Shown here: positions 2,132 through 2,884 of the stretch, piece by piece
Layout: every line of letters begins with the position of its first letter
Position numbering within the stretch: the first letter of the stretch is position 1
Source: a virus
Taxonomy: Duplodnaviria > Heunggongvirae > Uroviricota > Caudoviricetes
Virus record (IMG/VR): IMGVR_UViG_2693429582_000029
Length of the DNA: 13,218 bases
Strand: one strand, 5' to 3'
The notes under the pieces: model-generated
What the model saw: the letters and a program-made list of their open reading frames with translations, nothing else
The model's database searches: none
What the model was told of the DNA's origin: nothing
Made by a program: the position numbers and the translations under genes

Positions 2132-2884
2132 TCACCCCCTGAATCCTGCCGGGATCTGGCTGTAGTCCACGTTGTCGTAACTGGCTTTGAAGTACGGGTC
2201 CTCGCGTCTGGCTGCAGATACCGCAGGAACTTCCCAGGATTCTTCGAAATGACGATCCGGACCAAAGAACGTGACAGCCTGTTTCACAAATTGTGTGCCG
2301 CTGTTACCCATCGCAGATACCCAGCCCGCGTAGCGTTTCACACCTTCCAGCATGGTTTCGGGGTTTACTCCCTCATTCAAACGGGCTTTCCAGGCTTTGA
2401 AGGCTGCAGATTTTGAATTGCCACCAGCACGTTTGGGATATGCCAGCCATGCCTGCTCAAACTCCGGAGAGTATTCCGGTCGGTTTGAACGAACTCGCAC
2501 GGACTCATCAACTGATGCACCAACAGCTATTGGTTCATTGACTGGTTCTTTGACTGGTTCAAAAGAGTGACTGGTTCTGGGTGAATCTCCTGCACTACCC
2601 CCTGGTGAATCTCCTGCACCATCAAGATGAAGAAGATAGATATTACTTGAGTTACCTTTTTCACCTTTCCGGGTGACTTTTTTTACCAGCCCGGACTCAC
2701 AGAGGGCCGCAATATGATTCATCACAGAACGTTTGCTAATCTCGCACTGATCAGCGATATGCTGATAGCTGGGCCAGCACTCGCCCTGATCGCTGGCATT
2801 ATCAGCCAGCTTAATCAGAACCAGTTTTCGCAATGGATTTCCCACTCGAATTTTCATCGCTTTAACCATCAGCTCCATACTCAT
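2132..2884 (-). CDS. Phage replication initiator / replisome organiser-like protein with N-terminal helix-turn-helix domain (lambda O-position gene)
   Basis: 250 aa; the N-terminus LRKLVLIKLADNASDQGECWPSYQHIADQCEISKRSVMNHIAALCESGLV is a typical replication-protein HTH. RBS GGAGGTG 5 nt upstream of the ATG at 2884. The central linker is encoded by direct DNA repeats (see the repeat feature). Confidence 0.75.
   Translation of the reverse strand: MSMELMVKAMKIRVGNPLRKLVLIKLADNASDQGECWPSYQHIADQCEISKRSVMNHIAALCESGLVKKVTRKGEKGNSSNIYLLHLDGAGDSPGGSAGDSPRTSHSFEPVKEPVNEPIAVGASVDESVRVRSNRPEYSPEFEQAWLAYPKRAGGNSKSAAFKAWKARLNEGVNPETMLEGVKRYAGWVSAMGNSGTQFVKQAVTFFGPDRHFEESWEVPAVSAARREDPYFKASYDNVDYSQIPAGFRG
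2539..2619. repeat. Iteron-like direct repeats inside the replication gene, followed by an AT-rich tract: candidate phage origin of replication
   Basis: TGACTGGTTC occurs three times (2539-2548, 2551-2560, 2568-2577) and GTGAATCTCCTGCAC twice (2581-2595, 2605-2619, period 24 bp), immediately followed by AT-rich 2621-2660. The architecture is analogous to lambda ori within gene O. Confidence 0.5.

Follow-up and report, generated by a model that had tools for sequence, protein, structure and literature searches.

Can a stretch that reads as a low-complexity linker in a phage protein be the place where the phage genome begins to replicate? The question is raised by a DNA stretch of 13,218 nucleotides (nt) from the virus record IMGVR_UViG_2693429582_000029, hereafter the window, which is the early region of a lambdoid prophage and carries a cluster of short repeats in the middle of a gene for a 250-amino-acid (aa) replication initiator. 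The initial annotation had taken these repeats, together with an AT-rich stretch, for a phage origin within the initiator gene as in lambda. We consider it likely that window positions 2527-2619 are the replication origin of this prophage, lying inside its own initiator gene, where the linker is encoded, and consisting of two parts, dyad iterons and a core of ~40 bp. The lambda-like placement of the origin is backed by conservation at synonymous sites and across reading frames, by iterons that track the recognition helix of the initiator and by changes of copy number in whole units; the AT-rich tract is not supported as its unwinding element. Coordinates are given on the plus strand of the window, the initiator gene lies on the minus strand, and the features are collected in Table 1.

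Repeats in the initiator gene and their conservation as DNA

Both kinds of repeat were found at exact positions in the open reading frame (ORF) at 2132-2884 (minus strand), in the copy numbers, three and two, that had been given for this helix-turn-helix replication gene. On the plus strand, TGACTGGTTC occurs three times without mismatch, all within 39 nt (2539-2548, 2551-2560, and 2568-2577), and with up to one mismatch these are still the only three in the 13.2 kb; shuffled sequences gave a mean of 0.70, and 5 of 200 shuffles reached three. The other repeat, GGTGAATCTCCTGCAC, is present in two exact copies (2580-2595 and 2604-2619) 24 nt apart, and this iteron pair is the sole close direct repeat of at least 14 nt anywhere in the window. 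With up to three mismatches the iteron 15-mer has five matches against 0.32 expected, a number that none of 200 shuffles reached. Read on the gene strand, the pair amounts to two exact GTGCAGGAGATTCAC units inside the initiator ORF, the dyad direct repeats of a lambda-type architecture. Three further iteron-like sites with 2-3 mismatches lie outside the array (1964-1978, 3668-3682, and 4087-4101, minus strand), and the 3668 site fits the generic dyad GTGAA-N5-TTCAC. They were rejected as extra iterons and are probably due to chance: the sites at 1964 and 3668 are unconserved, and the one at 4087 recurs (cdtI, SfV, sal3) only within a conserved coding gene.

The repeats translate to ...DGAGDSPGGSAGDSPRTSHSFEPVKEPVNEPIA..., and the encoded stretch is DGAGDSPGGSAGDSPRTSHSFEPVKEPVNEP. 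On the gene strand the first repeat reads GAACCAGTCA, and its copies stand in different frames: copy 1 gives RTSH, and copies 2 and 3 (GAA-CCA-GTC) give EPV. Since copy 1 is out of frame with the other two, a peptide repeat cannot account for the DNA repeat. Iterons and core together encode aa 88-118, between the regions 1-89 and 138-202 that are folded in a structural model of the protein. As had been proposed from the translation, the repeats encode the linker of the initiator, which the model leaves disordered at aa 91-135 and where the coding constraint is lightest.

Homologues were collected in three sets: by protein search of phage records (loci L002-L012), by matching an exact 28-mer from the conserved block to viral contigs (at least 120 contigs), and, blind to the motif, by searching with the N-terminal peptide, each bacterial species being represented by a single genome. 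The last search gave 80 loci from the Enterobacterales, Pseudomonas, Aeromonas, Shewanella, Marinomonas, Aliivibrio, the Halomonadaceae, Microbulbifer, Marinobacter, and a metagenome-assembled genome of the Cardiobacteriaceae. Information content was computed for 50 representatives with <85% nucleotide identity and a G+C content at third codon positions of 0.32-0.86. Codon positions 1/2/3 hold 1.38/1.56/0.53 bit in the DNA-binding domain and 1.70/1.70/1.72 bit in a 33-nt block of the core, where the major third-position base has a frequency of 0.94. The same was observed in the codons of 10 divergent homologues: invariant residues of the domain use up to six synonymous codons (six for Ser41, four for Arg21), whereas each residue of R103-E113 (R-T-S-H-S-F-E-P-V-N-E) has a single dominant codon (AGA ACC AGT CAC TCT TTT GAA CCA GTC AAT GAA). 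The conserved block spans about -5 to +34 relative to AGAACC and is followed by background level.

At up to five mismatches the core was found in 68 of the 80 motif-blind loci, in 67 of them in an identical position and frame; L187, whose ORF is truncated, has it in a different frame. Loci scored as having no motif, when inspected afterwards, still had GAACCAGTCA-type copies at spacings of 12, 14, 15, or 18 nt. In three Shewanella loci (L200, L201, and L210), CACCCAGAACCAGTCAC is translated HPEPVT and not SPRTSH, and the iterons too are read in the other frame, giving ...LPLVNLLHPEPVTLEPVNES. Non-synonymous changes do occur in the block (T/I, H/N, F/L/S, P/S), and third-position variation is not in excess. 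The core thus described consists of two to four same-sense GAACCAGTCA copies with spacing 17/12/12, the full 17,12,12 pattern being present in 4 of 52 representatives, and its formula, CACCC-AGAACCAGTCAC-TCTTTT-GAACCAGTCA-AW-GAACC..., is common to phages of all iteron classes found. Codon dominance, reading across frames and third-position information mark selection on DNA beyond what the protein needs, as in a lambda-type origin: it is the DNA and not the peptide that is preserved. The initial annotation had asked for conservation of the repeats at the DNA level and had named scrambled linker codons in homologous genes as a finding that would speak against an origin; across ~50 homologues the opposite is seen, with domain codons scrambled and core codons fixed at all codon positions and across frames.

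In all viral-contig loci that were examined, the core is inside a rep-type ORF. It is present in 1026 of 5426 complete E. coli genomes, and all 60 of 60 sampled matches are in this gene, annotated as a helix-turn-helix protein. It is also carried by 139 phage records, including SfV, cdtI, phi24B, and Min27, and by 15 records labelled as plasmids, mostly phage-like circles of 33-54 kb with a few larger or chromosome-sized, in which the annotated positions are always this gene; the plasmid records weakly support a use of the core in replicons. Frameshifted or truncated rep genes were noted at L151 (Pseudomonas bharatica), L182 (Ca. Phlomobacter), and L187 (Erwinia tracheiphila); iterons and core are retained in the frameshifted L151 and in L187, and iteron-like repeats are kept in L182. 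At L195 (Shewanella profunda) both core-repeat copies are changed together to GAATCTATCA, at a spacing of 15, and the iterons contain GAACCAG, and L212 (Shewanella oncorhynchi) has partial changes resembling these. Such concerted change within one origin hints at a phage-encoded reader of the core.

Iterons, recognition helix and AT-rich tract

In the relatives the iteron units are imperfect dyads at a spacing of 21-24 nt, usually in 3-7 copies. The last interval is nearly always 24 nt, with 23 nt in a few homologues, and the last unit lies directly beside CC-AGAACC. The dyads go with the sequence of the predicted recognition helix: [KR]RSV[MIQ] helices pair with GTG[CA]A-N5-[TC][TG]CAC iterons, [KR]RTAMR and RSVMR helices with GTGACA..TGTCAC, S[KR][ST]AVR helices with TATGCC..GGCA, DRSTVR helices with GTAGGC..GCCTAC, and [GS]RSTVK helices with GGGCAG..CTGCCC. 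Iteron k-mer similarity has a Spearman correlation of 0.63 with recognition-helix identity versus 0.27 with the remaining domain residues; as partial correlations the two values are 0.60 and 0.14, and none of 999 Mantel permutations reached the observed value, linkage and shared ancestry being uncorrected in these figures. With the same reservation as to linkage and ancestry, helix/iteron classes and correlation make the repeat specific to the initiator type, as in the lambda-type architecture, and the covariation supports the view that the initiator would bind the iterons. The 15-mer is found in either orientation in different arrays, which fits the recognition of a dyad by a dimer. Both repeats had at first been called iterons; the GTGCA..TTCAC dyads behave as type-specific iterons, but the TGACTGGTTC repeats belong to the core that is shared across iteron types.

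Iteron number shifts by whole units, with 2, 5, or 8 in near-identical genes. SfV has five units of the GTGCA-N5-TTCAC type, and the cdtI protein, otherwise 99% identical to that of the window, is longer by 44 residues, which are six more such units, 8 in all. The initiator gene is present in 925 of 5426 complete E. coli genomes, and the two-unit form in only one, the source of the window. The match region measures 241 nt in the window versus 307 nt in nearly all other sampled carriers (295-328 in three), and the region longer by 66 nt corresponds to five iteron units. A larger protein collection has the identical 250-aa protein from 64 contigs, compared with 2852 members in a 272-aa cluster. 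A second 250-aa allele has 18 site differences, with spacer CACTAGGGGGT in place of CACCAGGGGGT, and the prophages that carry it differ in repressor, Ash gene, and antiterminator. Judging from these alleles, the short array is rare but arose, or survived, two or more times. In 49 diverse relatives the iteron region usually measures ~107 nt, the 44 nt of the window being the second shortest, and the best explanation of the two window iterons is that they are the remainder after a 66-bp in-frame deletion. For lambda, Dodson 1986 and Wickner & McKenney 1987 are cited in PMC7466680 for the statement that in vitro no more is needed than the two iterons closest to the unwinding region; the two-iteron origin of the window may therefore still work, probably less well. 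The iteron array is nearly gone (~20 nt) in the Ca. Phlomobacter locus L179.

The AT-rich stretch named beside the repeats is present as such at 2620-2659 (Table 1), but a role for it in the origin is unsupported. It precedes the iterons in gene orientation, on the promoter-proximal side, inside the conserved wing-coding sequence for KGNSSNIYLL. The wing-coding segment averages 0.12 below the G+C of the gene in 49 representatives, with no dip in several Pseudomonas relatives, and the tract is probably a by-product of the wing codons. As an unwinding element it was rejected for its place on the wing-coding side and for the normal G+C in those Pseudomonas relatives. An aligned G+C dip is observed at +20 to +40, inside and just after the GAACC repeats (0.40 versus 0.58 in high-GC genes, 0.35 versus 0.47 in the others); in the window this segment has a G+C of only 0.43-0.45. 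This dip is lambda-like in lying on the promoter-distal side and is also conserved as DNA. Neither dip is deep, and melting on the core side rather than on the tract side is favoured. Beside the tract, a terminator-like hairpin with a T-run lies antisense to rep at 2661-2685 (plus strand), one being found versus 1.1 expected in shuffles.

The proposed origin and its alternatives

The relatives of the initiator are modular genes. Eight unrelated C-terminal families follow the core, with weak Pfam hints for two only (DnaT and Phg_2220_C), and the neighbouring gene varies as well: it may code for a DnaB-type helicase, for a large protein of the primase/helicase type, or for a "replisome organiser," or be of no relevance. 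Among 167 pairs of genes that agree in the N-terminus but not in the C-terminus, similarity stops at +28 to +43 in 165, which is the 3' edge of the core. The Vibrio phages D62 and D79, both isolated from seawater-and-oyster samples of one type, share 92% identity from +38 to the gene end and are unrelated upstream; D79 has a different N-domain and other dyads, GGTGACAGAGAGTCAC, and is without GAACCAGTCA. Among phages with distant N-domains, Pseudomonas MD8 has CACCC-AGAACC followed by four GAACC at 11-12 nt, and Halomonas QHHSV-1 has two degenerate core copies. Bcep22 is without the core, and its linker has its own iterons and AT-rich tract. As the core tracks the N-terminus across the pairs, D62/D79, and the distant N-domains, it belongs to the N-domain/iteron module and not to the host, the C-terminal domain, or the helicase system. 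In the Burkholderia phage Bcep22 (L215, 523-1296) another N-terminal domain is fused to a window-type C-terminal domain (SPEFEQAW...YP.RAGGNSK), and the linker has four AACCCCTTCGGAAAA-type repeats followed by the AT-rich stretch; this looks like an independent case of iterons in the linker of a modular initiator.

At an origin of this kind, dimers of the N-terminal winged helix would bind the dyads through the recognition helix (aa 51-64). The dyads are about two helical turns apart; by analogy with lambda, the dimers would lie on one face of the helix and the DNA would be distorted. The initiator-iteron complex might then open the duplex at the core or contact one strand there, and the replicative helicase, of host or phage, would enter at the core, brought by the exchangeable C-terminal domain. 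The lambda mechanism that serves as the model is that given in PMC7466680 and in Tsurimoto & Matsubara 1981 as cited in PMC8022706.

Several points weigh against an origin at this place. No biochemical or genetic tests of binding or origin activity were found in the literature for any member of the family. The core is not AT-rich (G+C ~0.43), unlike classical unwinding elements. The covariation may partly be physical linkage in mosaic genomes, helix and iterons being ~100 nt apart, and a function at the RNA level would equally yield synonymous-site conservation. The window itself has two iterons versus 4-5 in relatives, within a prophage with an IS3 insertion and pseudogenes, and its own origin may be weak or dead.

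We advance a further proposal only tentatively. The ~40-bp block CACCC-AGAACCAGTCAC-TCTTTT-GAACCAGTCA... could be an unrecognised universal origin core of a very large family of winged-helix phage initiators, read sequence-specifically by the conserved face of the initiator, either as duplex or on one strand after opening, and a counterpart of DnaA-trios and plasmid 13-mers; the recognition helix would set the specificity for the iterons. If true, this would explain the fixation across orders and frames, the decay in step with the N-terminal domain, and the swapping of modules on either side. The RK2 oriV has repeated 13-mers in its unwinding element that are bound single-stranded by TrfA, and bacterial oriC has DnaA-trios. 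Like these, the window core has short same-orientation direct repeats beside double-strand sites of the initiator, which could be read on one strand; theirs, however, are AT-rich or trinucleotide repeats, and the likeness is a lead only.

Other functions can be imagined for one or both kinds of repeat. The iterons might be the origin and the GAACCAGTCA block a recombination "linker" joining the N-terminal/iteron module to the C-terminal modules, with no role in initiation. Susskind and Botstein reportedly proposed "linker" sequences for homologous recombination between phage modules, ~40 bp is near the minimal length for efficient homologous recombination, and both the mosaic junctions at the 3' edge of the block (165 of 167 pairs, and D62/D79 at +38) and the eight unrelated C-terminal families behind the same block agree with such a linker. 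An occasional benefit, however, cannot hold ~35 positions across orders while neighbouring synonymous sites are saturated. The block is moreover internally ordered: its 2-4 10-mers share one sense and a 17/12/12 spacing, and its distance to the last iteron does not vary. It is inherited with the N-terminal module and not common to both partners, the junctions lying beside it and not within it. We regard this linker as rather unlikely. It also seems unlikely that the repeats are sites at which the initiator exerts autoregulation, copy control, handcuffing, or a transcription roadblock, with initiation elsewhere in the phage genome. The helix covariation indicates likely binding and not initiation, and iteron arrays have control functions in plasmids such as P1 and F, but there is no other repeat array in the 13-kb early region, and the adjoining conserved core is without an obvious role in a pure operator model. 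Linker-coding iterons are in addition established for lambda, with the same reading for P22 gene 18 and phage L gene 18 (PMC8022706, PMC7466680).

Conservation at synonymous sites and across frames would be equally expected of a cis element in the initiator mRNA (translation control, RNase site, or antisense target), and the genes are tightly coupled by overlapping stop/start codons. Yet an Rfam scan of 2000-3200 gave nothing at E<=1, the RNA of 2520-2625 folds worse than shuffled sequence (z=+1.25), and a sigma-70 promoter scan of 2000-3200 found none on either strand, antisense TTGACT strings being without a -10 partner; nor would an RNA element explain why the block always lies 2-3 nt from the last iteron and in one orientation to the array. 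An RNA element is in our opinion very unlikely. As single-stranded DNA the core folds at -2.3 kcal/mol (z=0.08), and a single-strand initiation (ssi)-type or hairpin structure was rejected on the weak folding of both single-stranded DNA and RNA. DnaA boxes (TTATNCACA, up to one mismatch) are absent between 260 and 4259, and their total in the window is that of chance. Least credible is a protein linker rich in G/S/P/A/E and made by slippage, without any function of the DNA, to which we give almost no weight. The segment is predicted to be disordered and the array length varies by gain and loss of units, as such a linker would, but the third codon positions are conserved like the first and second, the DNA is read in two frames, and the non-synonymous changes T/I, H/N, F/L/S, and P/S occur without a third-position excess. 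On codon dominance, cross-frame reading, and third-position information, a linker of this sort is already contradicted. An origin of iterons and core is the reading that we prefer.

Known systems, the initiator protein and its surroundings

Iterons inside initiator genes are known, from textbooks for lambda and by inference for P22-like phages (PMC8022706). The lambda ori in gene O has four 19-bp dyad iterons and an adjacent AT-rich unwinding region, the O N-domain binding the iterons and the C-domain recruiting P-DnaB. The window resembles lambda in that the origin would lie in the linker-coding middle of the initiator gene, with imperfect dyads about two helical turns apart; in that a type-specific left part adjoins a part shared between phages, in a two-module initiator with exchanges at the origin; and in that iteron number varies among relatives (6 in 933W/P27; PMC7466680). 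It differs from lambda in that the protein is outside the lambda O family (no PF04492 match at E<=10), the iteron-adjacent segment is a conserved GAACCAGTCA block with ~43% G+C and not an AT-rich tract, and no P-like or helicase gene stands beside the initiator. For gene 18 of P22 and of phage L, repeats within O-like genes have been read from the sequence as origins (PMC8022706). As there, distinct repeats are found inside distantly related initiator genes on the same kind of evidence, and, like gene 18 with gene 12, some relatives of the window gene have a phage DnaB-type helicase as partner; neither the protein families nor the repeat sequences are the same, and no shared conserved core is reported there.

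The window module, a Rha/Ash protein followed by an HTH_36 protein, has the layout of Eru6 Stx phages (PMC8951638). The Eru6 reference phage Stx2a_WGPS2 has the same gene and core, and the Eru5 reference F403 has the same core with GGGCAG..CTGCCC iterons. Llarena et al. (PMC8951638) treat the "non-lambdoid" regions of Eru5, Eru6, Eru8, Eru11, and Eru13 as gene-content classes; nothing is known, it is stated there, about the Eru replication proteins, and iterons or an origin are unmentioned. No description of the element turned up in literature searches on its sequence and peptide, on SfV/iterons, HTH_36, and lambdoid replication modules, older subscription literature being outside their reach, and its strings match unrelated primers only. 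A repeat core that is not AT-rich, independent of frame, and spans orders beside exchangeable iterons appears to be undescribed in the searchable literature.

The element is ordinary in concept, yet it is clean and widespread and makes the replication of many medically relevant prophages directly testable. About one in five complete E. coli genomes (the 1026 of 5426 given above) has a prophage bearing the core, including the Stx-converting phi24B, Min27, and Stx2c phages, SfV, and cdtI. A defined origin, a helix-to-iteron table, and the core would offer handles for building replicons, for predicting cross-talk or incompatibility among co-resident prophages, and for blocking the amplification of toxin phages. 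For annotation the lesson is that selection at the DNA level can hide in a "low-complexity protein linker," with frame-independent conservation as a simple detector. The copy in the window is more modest, a shortened two-iteron allele in a partly decayed prophage.

The N-terminus of the initiator matches HTH_36 (PF13730) with E=1.6e-11 and 44.3 bit against a cut-off of 25, and the protein matches PHROG 270, "replication initiation protein," with E=2e-87. The profile score above the curated cut-off and the winged-helix fold of the model, a helix-turn-helix with a beta-hairpin wing, place it among the HTH_36 initiators. The lambda O family (PF04492, Phage_rep_O) gave no match at E<=0.01 nor at E<=10; some PHROG names call the initiator "O-like," but these are annotations only. 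The DnaD_N profile (PF21984) scored 24.5 bit versus a cut-off of 27, with a Foldseek match to the DnaD N-domain 2v79 at E=0.04, and Rep_3 (the iteron-plasmid Rep, WH1-WH2) gave no match at E<=10, the model having a single winged helix. The AlphaFold2 model was built from a 31-sequence alignment and has a mean predicted local distance difference test (pLDDT) of 62. It has helices at aa 3-11, 17-29, 40-47, and 51-64, wing strands at 67-73 and 79-85, and a helical C-terminal domain at aa 138-202. A sequence search for solved relatives gave nothing below E=0.18, and Foldseek gave generic winged-helix matches only, including the DnaD N-domain, all at E>=0.02.

Table 1. Features of the initiator locus (window coordinates, plus strand; a point in the strand column stands for no strand).
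Feature	Position	Strand	Basis or remark
cro-like gene	4791-5051	-	
CII-like gene	4247-4798	-	
Rha/Ash protein gene	3102-4250	-	
74-aa ORF	2881-3105	-	
Replication initiator gene, 250 aa: N-terminal winged helix, disordered linker, helical C-terminal domain	2132-2884	-	Pfam HTH_36, PHROG 270, AlphaFold2 model
Winged-helix DNA-binding domain, aa 1-89	2618-2884	-	Model pLDDT 80-93
Predicted recognition helix, aa 51-64, KRSVMNHIAALCES	2693-2734	-	Model; residues vary across phages along with iteron sequence
AT-rich tract of the initial annotation	2620-2659	.	G+C 0.30 versus ~0.5 around; wing codons KGNSSNIYLLHL
Disordered linker, aa 90-135, houses iterons and core	2480-2617	-	Model pLDDT <50, no secondary structure (aa 91-135)
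Iteron 1, gene strand GTGCAGGAGATTCACC, imperfect dyad GTGCA-N5-TTCAC	2604-2619	-	Exact repeat
Iteron 2, copy adjoining the conserved core	2580-2595	-	Exact repeat, 24 nt from iteron 1
Family-wide conserved core, gene strand CACCC-AGAACCAGTCAC-TCTTTT-GAACCAGTCA-AA-GAACCAGTCA-AT-GAACCA	2531-2583	-	
GAACCAGTCA copy 1, read RTSH	2568-2577	-	
GAACCAGTCA copy 2, read EPV, 17 nt from copy 1	2551-2560	-	
GAACCAGTCA copy 3, read EPV, 12 nt from copy 2	2539-2548	-	
Degenerate fourth copy GAACCAATAG, 12 nt past copy 3	2527-2536	-	Read from sequence
PerC-family ORF	1641-2135	-	
Dam gene	988-1674	-	

On the minus strand, the gene order from the immunity region is cro-like, CII-like, Rha/Ash, 74-aa ORF, initiator, PerC-family, and Dam, and none of the neighbouring genes in the window is a helicase, loader, or P-like gene. 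The Rha/Ash, 74-aa, rep, PerC-like, and Dam ORFs overlap in the ORF list at 3102-3105, 2881-2884, and 2132-2135 and by 34 nt at 1641-1674. Such overlapping stop/start codons over 988-4250 (minus strand) suggest translational coupling along the early-right operon. In place of the 382-aa Rha/Ash ORF, RefSeq has a DUF4222 ORF and a shorter Rha protein.

The window is 96-97% identical to the phages cdtI, Ayreon, and PhiR63_1 and to Stx2c-converting phages, and a prophage beside yjjG in the E. coli O103 strain ML775 is 99.99% identical to it, with 1 mismatch in 13,218 bases. By the coordinates of the near-identical ML775, window positions 1-72 are the end of an IS3-family element inserted in a KilA-N gene, of which an N-terminal fragment remains at ~122-259; KilA-N is intact in other carriers of the same rep allele. 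With IS3 in KilA-N and other pseudogenes, the prophage has partly decayed. A 729-aa ORF at 9735-11924 (minus strand), located between the genes for integrase and excisionase, encodes a CHAT-domain protein with a match (E=5e-241) to BovA, a PADLOC model of the Borvo anti-phage defence candidate, and looks like a prophage-borne defence gene; at its position the other prophage lineage with a two-iteron allele has an unrelated 271-aa ORF. Between the repressor and YfdP-like genes, an inverted repeat at 6407-6495 has 25-nt arms that are 84% complementary and 39 nt apart.

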